A stretch of DNA of 64,000 bases from IMG/VR virus record IMGVR_UViG_3300049927_000072, positions 1 to 64,000 of that record. One strand, given 5' to 3'. The notes beneath the pieces were generated by a model. It did not search any database. It was given only the letters and a program-made list of their open reading frames with translations, and was not told where the DNA came from. Source of the stretch: a virus. The position numbers were made by a program, and so were the translations under genes. The stretch's first letter is position 1; each line of letters opens with the position of its first letter. Of the stretch, positions 21,926 to 42,779 are shown one piece after another.

Positions 21926-22185
21926 GCTTTCACCTTGAGCGCTTCGAGGAATTTGCAGCTGGCGACGTGATCCGCGTCCTGCCAGAAGTGGATACCGCGT
22001 TCGGCGACGCTATCATCCTTGGTTTCAATACCAATGGCGACGCCAAGCTCTCGCGGCCTTACGGCTACGCACATAATGTCGGCACGACTGCGCCCGTGTC
22101 ATTGCTTGGCAGTGAGATTTATTCGCTGCCGCTGCGAACGATCCGGGTCTTGCAGCGTGTCGAGAGCGGCGGGAGGCGCGCGTGA
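21922..22185 (+). CDS. early hypothetical protein
   Basis: ATGA-coupled. Confidence 0.65.
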   Translation: MSFHLERFEEFAAGDVIRVLPEVDTAFGDAIILGFNTNGDAKLSRPYGYAHNVGTTAPVSLLGSEIYSLPLRTIRVLQRVESGGRRA

Positions 22186-22403
22186 GTAACCCGGCATTCC
22201 AGAAACGTCATTACGAAAAAATCGCTGAGGCAATTCAAGAGGCGCGCGGCGACGCTTGCATCCACACCGCGCAGCATCCCGAAGCGATCAACGTTGTCGT
22301 CAATGAACTGGCCGACGCCTTCGCTCGCGATAATGGACAATTCCAGCGGGGCAGGTTCATCGCGGCTTGCGAATGCGGCGCGAACGTGAGAGCGCGGTCA
22401 TGA
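22182..22403 (+). CDS. early protein, HYE.IA...ADAFARDNGQF...RF.AA family; paralog of 35939-36181 body
   Basis: Manual alignment. Confidence 0.7.
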   Translation: MSNPAFQKRHYEKIAEAIQEARGDACIHTAQHPEAINVVVNELADAFARDNGQFQRGRFIAACECGANVRARS

Positions 22404-29472: not shown

Positions 29473-29667
29473 ATGTTCGACACACCCCTCAAAGTGATGC
29501 TCTGGATTACGGTCGCGATACTTGCCCTCGCTTTCTTTTTCGGGCACGCCTCGGCACAGGTGATCGGGATCACTGATGCGAATGGCGGCACGACAATTGT
29601 AGTACCGCTCGGTTCGGCCGCGCCGCACATTATCGACGTGGAAGCGAAGCGCAAAGGGTGCGAGTAA
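29473..29667 (+). CDS. small secreted protein
   Basis: Signal peptide ending ASA. Confidence 0.55.
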   Translation: MFDTPLKVMLWITVAILALAFFFGHASAQVIGITDANGGTTIVVPLGSAAPHIIDVEAKRKGCE

Positions 29668-31031
29668 TGTCAGAGACCATGACCCGCCGCCCTGATCTGT
29701 ACCAAGTTCGCGCGCGTGAGATCGCGATAGAGAAAGGTCTCGACCCCGATGCGCGCGTCGGTGACGGGCGCGGCGCTCCGCAGTGGTGCTCATTCCGGCA
29801 AGCCGCTCGCGACGAGCACAGCGCACGCGAAGCGAAAGCAGCATCCGGGCAAATCGCAGCGATGCCCGCGTATCAAGCGCCTGAATACACGAACGCACCG
29901 TTGGCGATCTTCGGTGAGGACCACGACGAGAACACGATCCTGCAAATGAAGAATTGCATGTCAGTCGGCAATGTGGTCGGCGGGGTGATTTGCGCCGACG
30001 GTCATCTTGGCTACGCGCAGCCGGTCGGCGGAGTGATCGCCTATGATAAGCAAATCAGCATCTCAGGCGTCGGCTTCGATATCGGCTGCGGTAACATGGC
30101 CGTGAGGCTTGCCAGAAATTTCTTCGATATATCCAACGATGAAATTGGGATGTTTGCGCGCGATATCGCCAGCGAGATTTCGTTCGGTGTCGGCCGCATC
30201 AACGAAACGAAAGTTGAGCATGAATTGTTCGACGATGTTGAGGCGTGGCGCGCGAGTGGCATGGAAGACTACAAACCGAAAGCACGGGCGCAACTCGGCA
30301 CGGTTGGTTCAGGCAATCACTACGTGGACTTGATGCGCGACGAGCTAGGCTTTGTCTGGATCGGCGTGCACTTCGGATCACGCGGTCTCGGCCACACGAG
30401 TGCAACAAAATATCTCAAAGCGGCTGGCGGCAAAGATGGGATGCACGTGCCGCCCGCCGTGGTCGACGAGAGCAGTGAGATCGGCGTGCGGTACCTTGCG
30501 GCGATGGAACTTGCCGGGCGCTACGCTTATGCCGGGCGCGAGTGGGTCGTAGAACACGTGCGACAGATTGTCGGCGGCGAAGTTCTCGACAGCGTGCACA
30601 ATCATCACAACTACGCGTGGAGGGAATTGCACAACGGGCGCGAGCTTTGGGTCGTACGCAAAGGCGCAACGCCAGCATTTCCGGGACAGCGAGGATTTGT
30701 CGGTGGCAGCATGGGCGACGATGCTGTGATTATTGAAGGCGTCGAAAGCGATTGGTCACGTCGTGCGCTTTTCTCGACAGTGCACGGTGCGGGCCGTTTG
30801 TTCGGCCGCAAGGAAGCCAAGCGACGTTTCACTAAAGATGAAATGGATGGATGGCTACAGCGGCGCGGCGTGACGTTGGTTGGTGCTGATCTCGATGAAA
30901 GCCCGATGGCATATCGCCGCCTACCAGAAGTGCTCGCCGAACATTTAGATACGATCATCGTACGTCATGTGCTGCGGCCGTTCGCGGTCGTCATGGCGGG
31001 GGAAGGCGAGTTCGATCCATTTAAGGATTGA
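29667..31031 (+). CDS. rtcB: RtcB family RNA 3'-phosphate/5'-OH ligase with N-terminal extension
   Basis: DGH.G...PVG, GFDIGCG, QLGT.G.GNHY, H.GSRG.G, HHNY, RKGAT, GSMG, HGAGR, DESP.AY. Confidence 0.95.
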   Translation: MSETMTRRPDLYQVRAREIAIEKGLDPDARVGDGRGAPQWCSFRQAARDEHSAREAKAASGQIAAMPAYQAPEYTNAPLAIFGEDHDENTILQMKNCMSVGNVVGGVICADGHLGYAQPVGGVIAYDKQISISGVGFDIGCGNMAVRLARNFFDISNDEIGMFARDIASEISFGVGRINETKVEHELFDDVEAWRASGMEDYKPKARAQLGTVGSGNHYVDLMRDELGFVWIGVHFGSRGLGHTSATKYLKAAGGKDGMHVPPAVVDESSEIGVRYLAAMELAGRYAYAGREWVVEHVRQIVGGEVLDSVHNHHNYAWRELHNGRELWVVRKGATPAFPGQRGFVGGSMGDDAVIIEGVESDWSRRALFSTVHGAGRLFGRKEAKRRFTKDEMDGWLQRRGVTLVGADLDESPMAYRRLPEVLAEHLDTIIVRHVLRPFAVVMAGEGEFDPFKD

Positions 31032-31303: not shown

Positions 31304-31333
31304 CCGCCCGGGGCAACCCGGGCGGCTTTGTTT
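31304..31333 (+). terminator. intrinsic terminator
   Basis: CCGCCCGGG-GCAA-CCCGGGCGG-CTTTGTTT. Confidence 0.75.
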
Positions 31334-33283: not shown

Positions 33284-33300
33284 ACCAGCGGGGCGTGACG

Positions 33301-33337
33301 AAGCCCGGGGCATGAGCGTGCCCCGGGCTTTTGCTTT
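33301..33337 (+). terminator. intrinsic terminator
   Basis: AAGCCCGGGGCA/TGCCCCGGGCTT plus T-rich tail. Confidence 0.8.
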
Positions 33338-35452: not shown

Positions 35453-35689
35453 ATGGGTGTATTAAAAGCCAAGTCGCGCAACGCGCTGCCGTCGAAAGAT
35501 TTCGGCCTGCCGGATACGCGCCAGTATCCAATTGAGAATAAGGCTCACGCGCGCGATGCACTGGCCCGGGACAGTGAAGAGCTTGCCAAGGGCAAATTGA
35601 CCCCGGCACAGGCGGCTCAAATCAGGCACCGGGCCGACGTAGTGCTCGGCGAGACTGACAGCAACTACCACAATCACAGCAAGAAATAA
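35453..35689 (+). CDS. small late protein, LP.KDFGLP..R.YPI....HA..AL (DUF6582-like)
   Basis: Motif recognition. Confidence 0.7.
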   Translation: MGVLKAKSRNALPSKDFGLPDTRQYPIENKAHARDALARDSEELAKGKLTPAQAAQIRHRADVVLGETDSNYHNHSKK

Positions 35690-35717: not shown

Positions 35718-35942
35718 ATGAAAGATGCACAGGGACACGGCAGCGATAGCACTGGCAACCTCGCCCAGACAGGGCGCGGCCCGGCGGCTCATTCGTCGTT
35801 TCTGATCCAGAAATTAAACCCGGCGCTCGTGGGCAACCCGTGGCAGACGGTCGCGCGCATGAAAAACCAAGCGACGGCCGAGCGTGTCGCGCAGCACATG
35901 CGAACCGATGACCGCAGTATAACGAATAGGGTGAGACGATGA
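35718..35942 (+). CDS. MKD-GHGS-tagged small protein 1
   Basis: N-terminus MKDAQGHGSD. Confidence 0.75.
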   Translation: MKDAQGHGSDSTGNLAQTGRGPAAHSSFLIQKLNPALVGNPWQTVARMKNQATAERVAQHMRTDDRSITNRVRR

Positions 35943-36181
35943 AAGACGCACAGGGACACGGCAGCGAAGGCTCCGGCGCTGCGCATCAACGCGGCGTCGA
36001 GAAAGCATCGGCCACGATGACGCGCCAGCATTTCGAGATGATCGCGAGTACGCTCGCGAGCAGTGGAGCGAGTGCGGAGATTGTTAAAAATTTCGCTGAC
36101 AAACTCGCGGCGACAAATCCGCGATTTGATGCGGCTAGGTTCACCGCTGCGGCATCGAAAAGCTCCGGAGCAAAGAAATGA
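35939..36181 (+). CDS. MKD-GHGS-tagged small protein 2 (body paralogous to 22182-22403)
   Basis: MKDAQGHGSE; HFEMIA...FADKLAATNPRFDAARF. Confidence 0.8.
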   Translation: MKDAQGHGSEGSGAAHQRGVEKASATMTRQHFEMIASTLASSGASAEIVKNFADKLAATNPRFDAARFTAAASKSSGAKK

Positions 36182-36429
36182 AAGACGCACAAGGACACGG
36201 CAGCGACGGCAGCGGTAGCTTTATGCCGAAGTCTATCAGCGATGCTCGCGCGGCAGCGGCGCTCGCGCAAAATCATCCGAAGTCCGACACTAGCCCCGTC
36301 ACCGGACGACTTCCGGGTTCCGGAATTGGCATGAGCGCGAATGCGAGCTTCTCGGCTCCGGCGCGTGGTATGAGTTTCTCCGGCAACACCGCAGCGATGC
36401 TCATGCGTCAGAAGATGACAGGGCGATGA
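36178..36429 (+). CDS. MKD-GHGS-tagged small protein 3
   Basis: MKDAQGHGSD. Confidence 0.75.
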   Translation: MKDAQGHGSDGSGSFMPKSISDARAAAALAQNHPKSDTSPVTGRLPGSGIGMSANASFSAPARGMSFSGNTAAMLMRQKMTGR

Positions 36430-36779
36430 AAGACGAACGCGGGCACGGTAGCGATGCGCGCGGGGATATGGCTCGTCAAAATCCGACAGTCGTTTCTATT
36501 TCTGCCATACGCCCGTCTCAAGAAAATCTAGCTTGGATTGCAAAAGGATTAGCCGCCGCCGTTGAGGGTGCTAAGGCTGCACAGGCTGCGTACGGTGGAA
36601 AACTTGTTCCGATAGAAACAGGCGTGGATATGTACCGTCAACAAATTCGGTCTGGCGCGTATATTGCCCCGCTCAGCGTTGACACGAAAATGAACTTGAT
36701 CGACGGGCATACTCGGCTATTAGCCTACAAGGCCGAAGGAATTGCAAAAGTGCCGGTACAAGTCGTTCGAGGGAAATAG
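36426..36779 (+). CDS. MKD-GHGS-tagged ParB/Srx-like domain protein
   Basis: MKDERGHGSD; PLSVD...LIDGHTRL.A....G...VPV. Confidence 0.8.
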   Translation: MKDERGHGSDARGDMARQNPTVVSISAIRPSQENLAWIAKGLAAAVEGAKAAQAAYGGKLVPIETGVDMYRQQIRSGAYIAPLSVDTKMNLIDGHTRLLAYKAEGIAKVPVQVVRGK

Positions 36780-37052: not shown

Positions 37053-37340
37053 ATGAATATCGCACGTTCCGGCGCGCCCAAAGCGCCGCAGACCGAATTT
37101 GCTCCGCGCGACACCATGAAAGACATGACCGAGTATTCGGCCGGTCCGGCGACGCCCGGCTCTGGCCCGGATGCGTCGGCCGCAAATCCGCTTGAGAGTG
37201 AACCTCGCGGGAAGCTTCTGACCAAACAGCCCGGCGCTGTTGGCGCTGCATGGGATATGACGGACGGAGACGGCGACGGCGTCGATCCGACTATTGGTGG
37301 TGACGTGCTCAAGGAAGGCAAGCTGACAGGACGGCCATAA
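37053..37340 (+). CDS. small disordered late protein
   Basis: GGGGGAC SD. Confidence 0.65.
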   Translation: MNIARSGAPKAPQTEFAPRDTMKDMTEYSAGPATPGSGPDASAANPLESEPRGKLLTKQPGAVGAAWDMTDGDGDGVDPTIGGDVLKEGKLTGRP

Positions 37341-37341
37341 G

Positions 37342-37587
37342 ATGAAAGACGAGCGGGGCCACGGGTCAGACAGTCAAGGGGGCGCGGGCATATCGCATCA
37401 AAGCGCAGTGCAGCGGATCGGTGCAACACTCGGAGCGTTCGCAAAAGATGAAAGCGGTTCCGGCAAAACAGTCGGAGAAGCAGCCTTCGAGAAAATGCAC
37501 GACCCGGCGATGATCGCTAACTTAGTCGCCGAACTTGGGTCGCCAGAATTGGCGACCGTTGCGCATCTCGCGCACCTTTTGATTTAA
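37342..37587 (+). CDS. MKD-GHGS-tagged small protein 5
   Basis: MKDERGHGSD. Confidence 0.75.
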   Translation: MKDERGHGSDSQGGAGISHQSAVQRIGATLGAFAKDESGSGKTVGEAAFEKMHDPAMIANLVAELGSPELATVAHLAHLLI

Positions 37588-37943: not shown

Positions 37944-38633
37944 ATGAGCCGCTCAAGCGATTTGGCGAAAGCGCCCGTGAGCTTGCGAACGCGCGAGCCG
38001 GGCAGACGATATAATCCCAAAACATTGCGGAATGTGGTCAAATGGGCGCGAGAGATGCCCGTCATTCGCGTGATATGCGAGCGCGCTCGGGTCACCCGTG
38101 CTGGTCTAGCCTACTGGATCAAGAAGAGCGCCGCGGGTGAGATTGGGTGTGGTGATGGTTTCGACGTGACTATCAATGGCGAGACGCGCCGTTTTCACGA
38201 TTGGTATTACGATGCGTTCAGCGACGGTGTTGATCGCGTCGAAGAAGCCGCATTCAAACTCGCGAACGGCACGCACATGGAAGCGCTCTCTTACCGGGGC
38301 CGCGTGAATTATCAGGAAGACCCGGACTTGCTCGCGCTCGGCTTCGAAGGGCCGGAAGCGTGGAAGCGAGACAAGAACAATCGTCCAATACCAGAGGCAA
38401 TAGCAAAACTCGACCCGGATATGACGCGCTTCATTCTAAAAGCGCATCGGCCGGAACGGTACATCAATACGCAGAAAATAGATGTAACGCACAAGGGCGG
38501 CGTGCTTGTGGTCGGAACGCAAATGAAGCGCGAAGATTTCGAGAAAAAGTTTGTCGGCAAGTCCGGCACCGCAGACGTATTGGATGTTGAGTTCGAAGTT
38601 GTACCCACTGACGCCCCAGACCCGACGGCCTGA
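37944..38633 (+). CDS. terS: terminase small subunit
   Basis: N-terminal HTH-like region, D.VE..AF..A, F.LKA.RPE.Y; directly upstream of terL. Confidence 0.8.
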   Translation: MSRSSDLAKAPVSLRTREPGRRYNPKTLRNVVKWAREMPVIRVICERARVTRAGLAYWIKKSAAGEIGCGDGFDVTINGETRRFHDWYYDAFSDGVDRVEEAAFKLANGTHMEALSYRGRVNYQEDPDLLALGFEGPEAWKRDKNNRPIPEAIAKLDPDMTRFILKAHRPERYINTQKIDVTHKGGVLVVGTQMKREDFEKKFVGKSGTADVLDVEFEVVPTDAPDPTA

Positions 38634-38634
38634 C

Positions 38635-40191
38635 ATGGGTGTGACCGTAGAAAAATGGCGGCTGAAGGATGGTGTGTGGCGGCCGTGGGTCCGCAACAAC
38701 GAAGGCGAATTGATTGAAGCCATCTGGGCCGCGCAAGCTGGATCGCAAGACGCATTTCTCTCGTGCCCTACATTCGAAACTCTCTACTCCGGAACACGTG
38801 GACCGGGAAAAACTGACGCGCTCTTGATGGACTTCGCGCAGGATGTCGGCAAAGGCTTCGGCTCTAACTGGGTTGGCATTCTCTTCCGGCAGTCGCATCC
38901 GGCGCTGCGAGACGTGATCGAGAAGAGCAAGCGCTGGTATAAGCAAATCTGGGGCGATGCTGCGTTCTACAATGAGATCAAATTTTTCTGGGAATGGGAT
39001 ACCGGCGAGCGGTTGTACTTCTCGCACTTTGCGACCATCTCGGACTACGACAAGTACCACGGCCACGCGTACCCGTGGATCGGTTGGGAAGAATTGACCT
39101 CATGGGCCATGCCGGATTGCTATAAGTCTGCATTCTCACTTTGTCGCTCGCCTGTGCCGGGCATCCCGAAGAGGATACGCGCGACGACCAACCCGCACGG
39201 TGTCGGCCACAACTGGGTCAAGGGTCGTTTCCGGATCATTACAGTATCGCCGGATAAAATCGCAGACCCTGTGATAACGGATGCGAAAGACGAACAAGGT
39301 CGGCCCGAGCCACCGCGTCAAGTAATCTTCGGCTTCCTTGAAGAAAATAAAATCCTGCTACGCGAAGACCCGGAGTATGTCACCAACCTGCGAACAGCGG
39401 CGCGAAGTGAAGCGCAACTGCAAGCGTGGCTTTACGGTTCATGGGACATCGTCGCCGGTGGCATGTTCGACGACATCTGGCACGGCTACAAGACGGACAT
39501 CATCGTTGAGAATTTCCAAATACCGCCAGAGTGGCCAATCTATCGCGCGTACGATCACGGAAGCTCGAAGCCGTTTAGCGTCGGCTGGTATACGGTGAGT
39601 GATGGCTCCGATGTCATTGTCAACGGCAAGGTTCGGGCAACTGTGCCGGGCGATCTATTCCGGATCGCCGAATGGTACGGCTGGCGCGGTGTAGAAAACG
39701 AAGGCACGCGCATGCTCGTCGCAGATATCGCGCGCGGAATTATCCAGCGGGAGATCGATTGGGGATGGCGCTCACGCGACGGCAAGCACGTGCGAGTGAA
39801 ACGCGGACCGGCGGACACGTCCATATTTGACGAAAACAATGGCGTATGTGTCGCGGATGATTTCGAAAAGCCTGTGTTTATCAACGGCATCAAACATCGC
39901 GGCGTCGTATGGGAGCGCGCCGATAAAGGCCCCGGCTCACGCGTGCAAGGTTGGGAGCAAGTCCGGCGACGCTTGAAAGCAACGAAACGGCCGGACGGCG
40001 GCATCCGGGAAGTGCCGAGCCTGTTTATCGATGCCAAATGCAAACAATGGCTGCGCACTGTGCCAAATCTGCCGCGAGACGAAGATAAGATCGATGATGT
40101 GAACACAGAGGCAGAGGATCACGTCGGGGACGAGACACGCTACATGCTGCGCTTCGAGCCAAGAACAATGAAATCGGGGCGCACAATCTAA
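38635..40191 (+). CDS. terL: terminase large subunit
   Basis: GTRGPGKT, WIGWEEL, ATTNPHG.GH.W, nuclease D residues (YDHG, EDHVGDETRY). Confidence 0.95.
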   Translation: MGVTVEKWRLKDGVWRPWVRNNEGELIEAIWAAQAGSQDAFLSCPTFETLYSGTRGPGKTDALLMDFAQDVGKGFGSNWVGILFRQSHPALRDVIEKSKRWYKQIWGDAAFYNEIKFFWEWDTGERLYFSHFATISDYDKYHGHAYPWIGWEELTSWAMPDCYKSAFSLCRSPVPGIPKRIRATTNPHGVGHNWVKGRFRIITVSPDKIADPVITDAKDEQGRPEPPRQVIFGFLEENKILLREDPEYVTNLRTAARSEAQLQAWLYGSWDIVAGGMFDDIWHGYKTDIIVENFQIPPEWPIYRAYDHGSSKPFSVGWYTVSDGSDVIVNGKVRATVPGDLFRIAEWYGWRGVENEGTRMLVADIARGIIQREIDWGWRSRDGKHVRVKRGPADTSIFDENNGVCVADDFEKPVFINGIKHRGVVWERADKGPGSRVQGWEQVRRRLKATKRPDGGIREVPSLFIDAKCKQWLRTVPNLPRDEDKIDDVNTEAEDHVGDETRYMLRFEPRTMKSGRTI

Positions 40192-40247
40192 AGGCCGGTT
40201 GCTAATAAAACTGGAACGTGATTTATCGCAAATTCGCGGGGGACACC

Positions 40248-41900
40248 ATGAGCCTTGAAGACAAACATCCGGAATATATCAATCGCCTAGGTGAATGGAT
40301 ACAAATGGGCGACACCTACGCGGGTGAGCGCGAAATAAAGCGCAAGCGCGTAGACTACCTGCCCCCATGCGAAGGAATGATTGCGGACGGCATGTCCAAT
40401 CCGCAGTCTCCCGGCTGGAAAGACTACGAAGCGTATTTGATGCGGGCCGTGTATCCTGACGTGGTCAAGGATGCGGTTAAGGCGATGGTCGGCATTATGC
40501 ACATGCGACCCGCTACGATCACGCTCCCGAAAAAACTGCAAGGCATGTTCACCAAAGCCACCGCTCAGGGCGAGGGCTTGCAAATGCTTTTGCGTCGGAT
40601 CAATGAGGCGCAACTCAAAAACGGTCGCTGCGGATTGCTGGTCGAAGTGCCGACAGGCAAGGACGCGGCGAGTGCGCTCCCGTATATCGCGTTCTACGAT
40701 GCCGAACGCATCACGAATTGGGACGCTGGCCGATATGAAGAGGGCCAGAACGATTTGGAAATGGTTGTGCTCGACGAGAGCGGACCATCGCGCAAAGGTT
40801 TCACATGGCAGACGGAGCGTAAATTTCGCGTCCTTACGCGCGGGGCTTTGAGCGCTATAAATGCCGACGGAGAATGGCGACCCACCGATACCGACGAATA
40901 CGTGGTCGCAGTGAAAATCAATGAAGTCAACACTCCGACCGCGGGCGATTTTATCACACCACAAATCGCTGGCCGCACACTGAAAAAAATTCCGTTTGTG
41001 TTTATCGGCGCAAACGATCTCGTACCAGAGCCGGAAGTCCCCCCACTAATTGGTCTCAGCAATCTAGCTCTCGCGATCTATCGTGGCGAGGCTGACTATC
41101 GTCAGACCCTGTATTATCAGGGCCAGCAAACGCTCGTTATCATCGGCGGCAACGCTGGTGACACTGACGAGCAAATTCGCACCGGCAATAAGGGCGTGAT
41201 CGACCTCAAGCTTGGCGGCGATGCAAAATTCATTGGCGTTTCCGCGACTGGCCTTGGCGAGATGCGTCAAGCGGTCGAGAATGACAAGGCCAAAGCCGAC
41301 AGTATGGGCGTCGCATTCATGGATGTCGGCAATGCGCGCGGCGAGAGTGGCGAAGCTCTCCGTATTCGAGTGGCCGCACGCACCACGACAATATCATCGA
41401 CCAACCAAGCTGCGGGCGCTGGCCTCGAAGCTGCGTTGAAATTCTGCGCGGAGTGGGTCGGAGAAAATCCGGACGAAGTGAAAGTCGAAGTGCAAACCGA
41501 CTTCGCGGATCAGAGTGTCGCGGGTGCTGCATTGCTTGCGTTCATGCAGGCGAAGCAACTTGGCTTGCCGCTGTCTCTCAAGTCGTTACATCGCACTATG
41601 AAGGCGAACGACTTGACCGACATGACCTTCGAAGAAGAGAGCGACCAAATCAAGGAAGAAGCCGTGACCGCGGTCGAGGATATGGCCGATCTCACGCAAG
41701 TGGCGAGCGACAATAACTTCCTTGACGAGCCAGCCGACACGACAGATGCGACGGCAGGGAATGTGAAAACCACTCCGCCCATCGCTCCCGCCGGGCTTAT
41801 CAAGCCCGGCCAGAGCGTCCCGGTAACCCCGCACGCGCGCGGAACGCCAGTCCCCATGAAAGGCAAAGTCGGCAAAAAAGGTGCGTCGGCTGGAAAGTAA
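40248..41900 (+). CDS. portal protein (DUF4055 type)
   Basis: HPEY, YLP, Y..YL.RA, IPFVFIG, PPL..L, ESGEAL; position after terL. Confidence 0.9.
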   Translation: MSLEDKHPEYINRLGEWIQMGDTYAGEREIKRKRVDYLPPCEGMIADGMSNPQSPGWKDYEAYLMRAVYPDVVKDAVKAMVGIMHMRPATITLPKKLQGMFTKATAQGEGLQMLLRRINEAQLKNGRCGLLVEVPTGKDAASALPYIAFYDAERITNWDAGRYEEGQNDLEMVVLDESGPSRKGFTWQTERKFRVLTRGALSAINADGEWRPTDTDEYVVAVKINEVNTPTAGDFITPQIAGRTLKKIPFVFIGANDLVPEPEVPPLIGLSNLALAIYRGEADYRQTLYYQGQQTLVIIGGNAGDTDEQIRTGNKGVIDLKLGGDAKFIGVSATGLGEMRQAVENDKAKADSMGVAFMDVGNARGESGEALRIRVAARTTTISSTNQAAGAGLEAALKFCAEWVGENPDEVKVEVQTDFADQSVAGAALLAFMQAKQLGLPLSLKSLHRTMKANDLTDMTFEEESDQIKEEAVTAVEDMADLTQVASDNNFLDEPADTTDATAGNVKTTPPIAPAGLIKPGQSVPVTPHARGTPVPMKGKVGKKGASAGK

Positions 41901-41906
41901 AACATC

Positions 41907-42779
41907 ATGGCCTTCGACCCGGATCAACTCCGAGACGAGCATGGCCAGTGGACGAGCGGGGGAGCTTCAACGCCTGAAAAGGCGCAAGAGCAAGCCAACC
42001 GCGTCGCCGCTGGCGCGAAGCCTATTGAGAGCCTCCCGCAAAAGCCAATCAACATAGGCGGCAAGTGGTACGTGCCGGGACCGATAGGTTCGCTGCGCGA
42101 CGCTGCATCCAAGTACATGGCTGAGAGCAAGCTCGACTACAGTCCGGTCACGAAATATGAAAAGCTCGACGAAGAGCGTGCAACCAATATCGCGCAAGCC
42201 TTTGAAGAGATGAAAAACGATCCGACCAATCCGGAAGTGAAAGCATCCTACGAAGCAATGGCGCACGAAGTCATGGGCCAATACCAAGCGCTCGTGGACA
42301 GTGGTGTGAAAGTCGAATGGATCAAGCCGGGCCAACCGGACCCATATGCAGCAACGCCGCGACTTGCTGCGGTGGATGTGAGCGAAAACAAGCATTGGTG
42401 GGGCTTTCCGACCGATCTCGGCTATGGCTCCGGCGATCATACGGACACAAAAGACAATCCGATGCTGCAAAAAGTCGGCATTAAAATTGACGGGCGCGAT
42501 GTCGTGCTTAACGACGTGTTTCGCGTCGTGCATGATATGTATGGTCATTTCAAAGAGGGCAACGGTTTTCGCGCCGCAGGCGAAGATAACGCTTGGCGAT
42601 CTCACGCCTCGATGTTTTCGGAGAAAGCTTTGCCAGCAATGACCGCGGAAACGCGCGGGCAAAATTCGTGGGTAAATTACGGGCCATACGGCTCATACAA
42701 TCGCACGGCGAGCGCGGGAGACACGCATTATGCTCCGCAGAAAATCGGCATCATGCCCAAGTGGACACAGGCGCGATGA
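41907..42779 (+). CDS. putative internal virion protein with RDxxGxW leader and HDxxGH metal-binding-like domain
   Basis: DQLRDEHGQWT; NDVFRVVHDMYGH...GEDNAW..H...ETRGQNSW. Confidence 0.7.
   Translation: MAFDPDQLRDEHGQWTSGGASTPEKAQEQANRVAAGAKPIESLPQKPINIGGKWYVPGPIGSLRDAASKYMAESKLDYSPVTKYEKLDEERATNIAQAFEEMKNDPTNPEVKASYEAMAHEVMGQYQALVDSGVKVEWIKPGQPDPYAATPRLAAVDVSENKHWWGFPTDLGYGSGDHTDTKDNPMLQKVGIKIDGRDVVLNDVFRVVHDMYGHFKEGNGFRAAGEDNAWRSHASMFSEKALPAMTAETRGQNSWVNYGPYGSYNRTASAGDTHYAPQKIGIMPKWTQAR

Follow-up and report, generated by a model that had tools for sequence, protein, structure and literature searches.

The 80-aa late protein encoded at 35939-36181 and the 73-aa early protein encoded at 22182-22403 are almost certainly homologous members of one family, as judged by profile searches. 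The best explanation overall, which is held with modest confidence, is that they represent two subfamilies of this family: a late lineage that is fused to a leader and perhaps loaded into the capsid, and a plain early copy. The window, that is, the whole stretch of DNA that was analysed, comprises the first 64 kb of a 75,884-bp IMG/VR virus record whose completeness was put at 71% by CheckV, and its terminase DNA is distant kin of that of YuA-, RDJL- and MW2-type siphophages.

Gene layout and homology of the two copies

The left arm of the genome holds the replication genes (polymerase, exonuclease and primase), and a plus-strand block that starts at about 21.7 kb comprises first small genes and the gene of an RtcB-like ligase and, further on, those of terS, terL, portal, scaffold and major capsid protein. 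The features that are used below are the following:

22182-22403, plus strand: early gene for an untagged 73-aa homologue, whose subfamily has the pattern F-x-K-R-H-Y-E...D-N-G-x-F...R-F..A-C-x-P-G-A-N-V-R-A
31304-31325, plus strand: strong, bidirectional intrinsic terminator that separates the early gene from the array and has 9 G-C pairs
33300-33331, plus strand: strong intrinsic terminator with a 14-pair stem, upstream of the late unit
35453-35689, plus strand: conserved untagged gene that forms the upstream border of the array (phrog_16160, E 4.6e-19), the same border being found in 13 related loci
35718-35942, plus strand: tagged gene 1 (product of 74 aa), coupled through ATGA with the late gene and with body relatives in the tag arrays L016, L029 and L013
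35939-36181, plus strand: late tagged gene, 80 aa, with a disordered leader (residues 1-26) and a three-helix body (M27-K80)
35939-35968, plus strand: the N-terminal tag MKDAQGHGSE, common to five ORFs of the window
35978-36010, plus strand: second leader motif, AAHQRGVEKAS; the consensus in related arrays is A-H-[QS]-x-G-[VI]-x-x-[VI]-G
36017-36178, plus strand: body domain, which opens at an internal Met (MTRQHF...), the exact start point of stand-alone family members
36178-36429, plus strand: tagged gene 3, whose 83-aa product contains ALAQNHPKSDTSPV; its PKS motif, '..LA.G.PKS..VP.H', recurs in many tagged proteins
36426-36779, plus strand: tagged gene 4, whose 117-aa product has a ParB-N-like body (phrog_620, ParB-like, E 4.1e-6; no Pfam match)
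37053-37340, plus strand: conserved untagged gene between array and terS, with homologues likewise placed in about 20 related loci
37342-37587, plus strand: tagged gene 5, 81 aa, a tag-bearing ORF
37944-38633, plus strand: terS (PHROG match), directly downstream of the array
38551-40191, plus strand: terL (PHROG match)
40218-41900, plus strand: portal (PHROG match)

Two strong plus-strand terminators separate the early gene from the late one. The tag array and the terminase form one predicted transcription unit, and the early gene lies in a separate upstream unit; by these predicted units the gene at 22182-22403 is classed as early and that at 35939-36181 as late. The separation into an early and a late gene made in the earlier note is supported by these predicted units, with one gene upstream and the other among the terminase and head genes. 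The early ORF starts with GTG at 22182 behind GGGAGG and overlaps the preceding stop codon by GTGA, and the late ORF starts with ATG at 35939, preceded by GGGTGAG. The gene for an RtcB-type RNA ligase (29658-31031; phrog_1075, E 8e-74) was observed in the middle region, immediately 5' of the bidirectional terminator.

Both ORFs lie where the earlier note had placed them and their translations agree with the residues that it quoted; the alignment that it gave is the optimal Smith-Waterman alignment of the pair. This alignment has a score of 52, with 15 identities over 43 aligned positions and z = 6.1-6.8, and was equalled by 1 of 2000 shuffles. BLASTP of the late against the early ORF returned no alignment at E <= 100, and once the many possible pairs are allowed for, the resemblance of the two sequences taken alone is borderline. 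By using profiles, a search with P0002, a tagged metagenomic orthologue of the late protein, gave E 3e-6 for the early protein and E 6e-7 for P0005, a relative of the early protein. Among the 1,606 six-frame ORFs of the 75.9-kb genome, which served as search space, the profile of each family found the other gene as its best non-self match (E 1.3e-5 and 0.0024). Profile A6, built from 15 family members with both window sequences and their close relatives left out, matched the late protein at 1.5e-18 and the early one at 2e-12 in the same 1,606 ORFs; only these two were matched, the next value being 0.56.

The earlier note would have dropped the relationship for a non-significant profile alignment or for different folds. 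The hhalign comparison of the late with the early family gave 86.8% probability and E 4.3e-6, and both proteins are predicted as three helices in the same order, so that neither refuting outcome was obtained. The AlphaFold2 (AF2) model of the late protein has an overall pLDDT of 78, with residues 1-28 disordered (about 60) and helices at 29-42, 46-59 and 65-77 (above 90); that of the early protein shows three helices at a pLDDT of 85. Both models were built on largely shared alignment rows, so that their agreement in fold is not independent.

The three-helix family and its two lineages

A profile search of 1.84 billion representatives gave 1,259 clusters at E <= 1e-3, and the family can be described as a three-helix module of about 55 aa found in phages and prophages. 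Most members are stand-alone proteins of 55-80 aa that start with MT[RK]xxF.LIA and are encoded among early-type small genes. The pattern of the family is [RK]-x-H-[FY]-E-x-I-A ... [FL]-A-D-x-[LF]-A-x-x-N-[PG]-x-F-x-x-x-R-F-x-x-A, in which the N-x-x-F turn between helix 2 and helix 3 is present in both window proteins, its N and F being invariant in 87 alignment rows. The near-invariant positions are hydrophobic apart from one Asn, at this same turn. Since the domain is small and has few polar invariant residues, it is read as a module that would bind a protein or nucleic-acid target, not as an enzyme.

The only PHROG match of the family is phrog_19432, of unknown function. To this phrog_19432-like family, with members in Streptomyces phage Coruscant, Mycobacterium phages Myrna and Predator and Rhizobium phage RHph_X3_9, among others, both window proteins belong by profile and predicted fold; typical members lack the leader and the cysteine-free, basic composition that the late copy adds. 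Cultured phages of Streptomyces, Mycobacterium, Rhizobium and Erythrobacter carry members, as do prophage-like regions of Sphingomonadales, Acidobacteriota, Nocardiaceae and other genomes. The bacterial neighbourhoods of stand-alone members are prophage-like, with recombinases and small ORFs and no constant partner gene. Pfam and NCBIfam hold no model for the family, the weak matches being DUF4142 (0.015) and TraN (0.002, far below the TraN cut-off), and the late protein, the early protein, P0101 and the module of the long proteins were all without a Pfam match, polyvalent-protein LPD families included. A sequence search of the PDB with the domain found no solved relative (E > 0.2) and Foldseek against the PDB no specific match; the VIA wide fold search returned only generic helical bundles and designed proteins (Z <= 6.0) and the ESM Atlas only viral 'hypothetical protein' clusters. 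The nearest structures are those of uncharacterised small phage proteins.

The module is also part of nine long representatives of 362-1169 aa, in most of them as two copies, and in one, P0048, two copies are joined to, or lie behind, a region annotated as 'virion structural protein'. The module was also seen paired in one polypeptide in both tagged and untagged proteins (P0012, P0019, P0021, P0044, L014:7897-8334, P0020, P0050 and P0155) and in the long proteins P0037, P0052, P0053, P0124, P0133 and P0153. This frequent pairing hints that the module may work as a dimer. For the early protein with the late body, complex prediction gave a score of 0.25, which is below the mark of 0.32 and bears on binding in neither direction.

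Within this family the two window proteins stand apart. Their mutual identity is about 25-35%, and each reaches about 60% identity with proteins from other phages. P0002, at 60% identity to the late protein, retains a loop that was lost from the latter. The early protein and seven metagenomic proteins, to which it is about 60% identical, make up the alignment of an eight-member subfamily characterized by F-x-K-R-H-Y-E, D-N-G-x-F, an invariant Cys63 and the C-terminal P-G-A-N-V-R-A tail. In a family tree of 73 columns, which is poorly resolved, the late protein groups with the tagged P0002, P0011, P0013 and P0023 and the early copy falls inside an all-untagged clade; the tagged label requires 7 changes on this tree versus 28 with shuffled labels. 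On 13 viral contigs with early-type proteins, no tag was found within 10 kb on any. Of the description of the late gene as a paralog of the early one, the homology therefore stands by the profiles, and the notion of a duplicated gene falls on the different subfamilies and on a mutual identity well below that to outside proteins. By sequence, the two copies are ancient relatives from two subfamilies and no recent in-genome duplicate.

The leader, its gene array and the fate of the tagged proteins

Five ORFs of the window begin with MKD[AE][QR]GHGS[DE], at 35718, 35939, 36178, 36426 and 37342, all on the plus strand, and the 75.9-kb genome has no further start of this kind. The DNA of the tag varies at synonymous sites, for example AGC versus TCA for Ser, and nothing is conserved upstream of the ATG; selection thus acts on the peptide, not on the DNA. 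A search of IMG/VR by the tag DNA pattern recovered 29 stretches that hold 134 tagged ORFs in all, with runs of as many as twelve or so, and one further array was found on a metagenome contig, a metagenome scan with P0002 leading to contig L066. In the loci examined all tags are strictly N-terminal, including three seemingly internal ones that proved to lie behind GTG or TTG/CTG starts. Cultured-phage records searched for the tag and its companion motifs gave nothing usable and no tagged protein, and a search of the literature on the tag peptide found nothing relevant.

The leader is ordered as tag, Gly-rich linker and often the second motif, A-H-[QS]-x-G-[VI]-x-x-[VI]-G, which follows the tag in P0002, P0011 and P0013 as well as in the majority of the 134 tagged ORFs. 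The three-helix array members L030:5415-5684, P0014, P0036 and P0031 were seen without MKDxxGHGS and with the second motif (H-[AS]-E-G-V-E-Q-I-G), so that the two leader motifs are separable. At the joint of leader and body, the internal Met of the late protein is kept by most tagged relatives, and it looks like the scar of a leader that was fused before a complete stand-alone gene. Internal initiation at M27, which would yield an untagged isoform, was considered and is unlikely, the upstream GAGAAAG being a poor and badly spaced Shine-Dalgarno sequence.

The position of the array is constant, between the border gene (35453 here) and two small conserved genes, followed by terS. The array-bearing phages form a related clade, and their shared position and composition are partly inherited and not independent; the window shares 35-69% identity with the other array-bearing contigs in terS, terL and portal. 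The three-helix module is often present in the arrays, being tagged in L014/L031, L015, L029, L066 and L067; the copy in L030 has a variant leader and that in L019 is cut off at the end of the locus. Among the other bodies are an Arr-type ADP-ribosyltransferase (L028:3181-3630; PF12120, 29.7 bits, cut-off 25) and a GNAT acetyltransferase (L018:2386-2799; PF00583, 33.1 bits, cut-off 20.7).

Some further observations were made in these loci. Tagged proteins reuse short linear motifs in varying order (L006-L034 and L066; for instance L027:2042-2416 and L029:5928-6278): 'TPVQSENAPFKSRL...[FY]LDPHDPR' occurs after the tag or at the C-terminus, and others are '..LA.G.PKSAPVPVHD', 'NAIASSNRSGRRIGGKEA..IHRLLKGR' and 'HNDQGHAWGSPEALKDF'. 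At L019:5851-8340, on the minus strand, a terL homologue is matched in two pieces, residues 45-173 and 172-536, about 950 bp apart, which suggests an insertion (an intron, intein or homing-endonuclease gene). Just after the portal of the window, 41907-42779 encodes a 290-aa product that matches only phrog_3170 (unknown) and has 64-67% identity in the array-bearing relatives L033 and L012; it is a candidate head-associated partner.

The composition of the tagged proteins sets them apart. A set of 104 distinct tagged proteins, all with 60 aa or more, is 99% cysteine-free (0.0075 Cys per 100 aa), and 95% have a pI above 8; untagged members of the three-helix family have a median pI of 8.0 and contain 1.16 Cys per 100 aa. 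In this genome the Cys content per 100 aa is 2.1-2.4 for the early and replication proteins and 1.08 for the terminase and structural proteins. The window pair fits the rule, with a pI of 9.9 and no Cys in the late protein versus a pI of 6.8 and 3 Cys in the early one. Such a gap points to a physical constraint on tagged proteins that is absent in their untagged relatives. In these related phages, a cysteine-free and basic composition fits, short of proof, proteins that reside with DNA and leave the cytoplasm.

As judged by analogy, by composition and by where the genes lie, the best-supported reading is that the leader directs the late copy into the virion, at roughly even odds. A stand-alone gene, start Met included, would have been fused behind a disordered leader made of MKDxxGHGS, a Gly-rich linker and AHQxGVxxxG. 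The fused lineage would then have become a recurrent member of a variable array of leader genes, between the border gene and terS-terL-portal, in an uncultured phage clade, and like all array members it would have turned cysteine-free and basic. The early copy would have kept its conserved Cys and near-neutral charge under transcription from the separate upstream unit. During infection, the leader would load the late copy into the procapsid, from which it would enter with the DNA, as the T4 capsid-targeting sequence (CTS) does for internal proteins, and the early copy would act from the cytoplasm once transcription has started. A bolder picture is advanced tentatively, and is doubtful as a whole: in a siphophage-like uncultured clade, an undescribed two-motif leader may load changeable small effectors into the capsid, the leader lineage having been stripped of Cys and made basic for life with DNA and for cell entry, and the plain early copy may serve as a backup, giving a natural matched pair.

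Alternatively, the leader could be a shared handle that serves other ends than capsid loading: a docking peptide for a late chaperone, for a modifying enzyme or for terminase or portal during packaging, or else a timing or degradation signal, with the late copy acting late in the infected cell. Conservation at the level of the peptide and the organisation in arrays would fit any common reader, and so would the strictly N-terminal position of the tag in all loci examined. In addition, the five head-module products that were scanned, from terL to the major capsid protein, include a scaffold (phrog_206) and a major head protein and offer neither a protease nor a receptor, so that a T4-like cleave-and-load route is without an identified enzyme here. 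However, near-total cysteine loss together with high pI across dozens of unrelated bodies is hard to account for in purely cytoplasmic late proteins, a cysteine-poor and basic composition fits residence with DNA or outside the cell, and the repertoire of bodies (ART, GNAT and ParB-like) matches that of known injected effectors (PMC5512222, PMC3012670). This alternative is considered rather unlikely.

The pairing, known systems and significance

The earlier note had read the two genes as the same activity made once early and once as a tagged, virion-delivered copy, and had taken this as what a model of tagged cargo predicts. With a mutual identity of only about 25-35% and different subfamilies, sameness of activity is an assumption. 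As for the pairing, seven array-bearing genomes, each at least 90% complete, were searched over their whole length for copies of the module. Three have a copy inside the array only, one has only an untagged copy, about 25 kb from the array, and three have none; a tagged and an untagged copy together occur in 0 of the 7. Therefore, the pairing is an individual feature of the window phage, is not selected for across its relatives and does not amount to a conserved design; it neither follows from the cargo model nor tests it.

It is unlikely that the two copies serve one function against a common target, one being pre-made and injected for DNA entry and the other made early to sustain the effect. 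A common family, a common predicted fold and conserved core pattern, and expression from different transcription units would all suit such a division, but the low identity, the different subfamilies, termini and charge, and the seven complete array-bearing genomes, where the two copies never occur together, weigh against it. That the resemblance is due to chance or composition and the two ORFs are unrelated, as the empty BLASTP comparison and the shortness and helical nature of both proteins would allow, is already refuted by the profile searches, given an independent A6 profile with nothing else in the genome below 0.5, reciprocal best profile matches, the hhalign E-value of 4.3e-6 and bridging sequences that connect the two proteins.

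If the late copy is loaded into the virion, phage T4 offers the nearest comparison. Its Alt protein is a head-packaged ADP-ribosyltransferase. The array bodies resemble the T4 internal proteins in being diverse and fast-changing, and they include, in related arrays, an ADP-ribosyltransferase to set beside Alt. The internal proteins of T4 are a highly diverse set in which only the CTS is conserved, and the CTS encapsidates them into the scaffolding core (PMC3012670). As with the CTS of IPI, IPII, IPIII and Alt, one short N-terminal peptide here heads otherwise unrelated small proteins, five in the window and 134 in related contigs; the likeness is one of arrangement, no sequence likeness being claimed, and the tagged proteins are known here from their genes. 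The head module of the window phage differs from that of T4, having a phrog_206 scaffold, and the five products scanned gave no protease; its tagged genes lie in one array adjoining terS, whereas those of T4 are scattered; and the tagged leader, unlike the CTS, has a second conserved motif.

Polyvalent proteins, known from phages and from conjugative elements (Iyer et al. 2017), provide a second comparison. ParB-like, GNAT and ART domains are among the domain types of these capsid-packaged effectors, and solo versions of such domains among late genes beside virion genes have been read as capsid-deployed (PMC5512222). The same three domain types stand among the late genes beside virion genes in the arrays, and the three-helix module, like the domains of polyvalent proteins, occurs inside long multi-module proteins, usually twice (P0037, P0052, P0133 and others). 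In contrast to polyvalent proteins, each array module is a gene of its own with its own leader, and not part of one polypeptide destined for cutting.

What the finding means depends on the leader. If it is not a loading signal, what is left is an ordinary case, one genome that carries two distantly related representatives of a common phage family. If it is a loading signal, the tagged and untagged pair of one fold would be a ready-made control for the sufficiency and necessity of the leader, and the contrast in composition, no Cys and basic versus Cys-bearing and neutral, would show the demands that residence in the virion makes on a protein. Under the same condition, the pair would open a first way to the function of this unnamed and very large family of small proteins of phages (> 1,200 clusters), and the leader would furnish a portable packaging tag for phages with scaffold-type heads.
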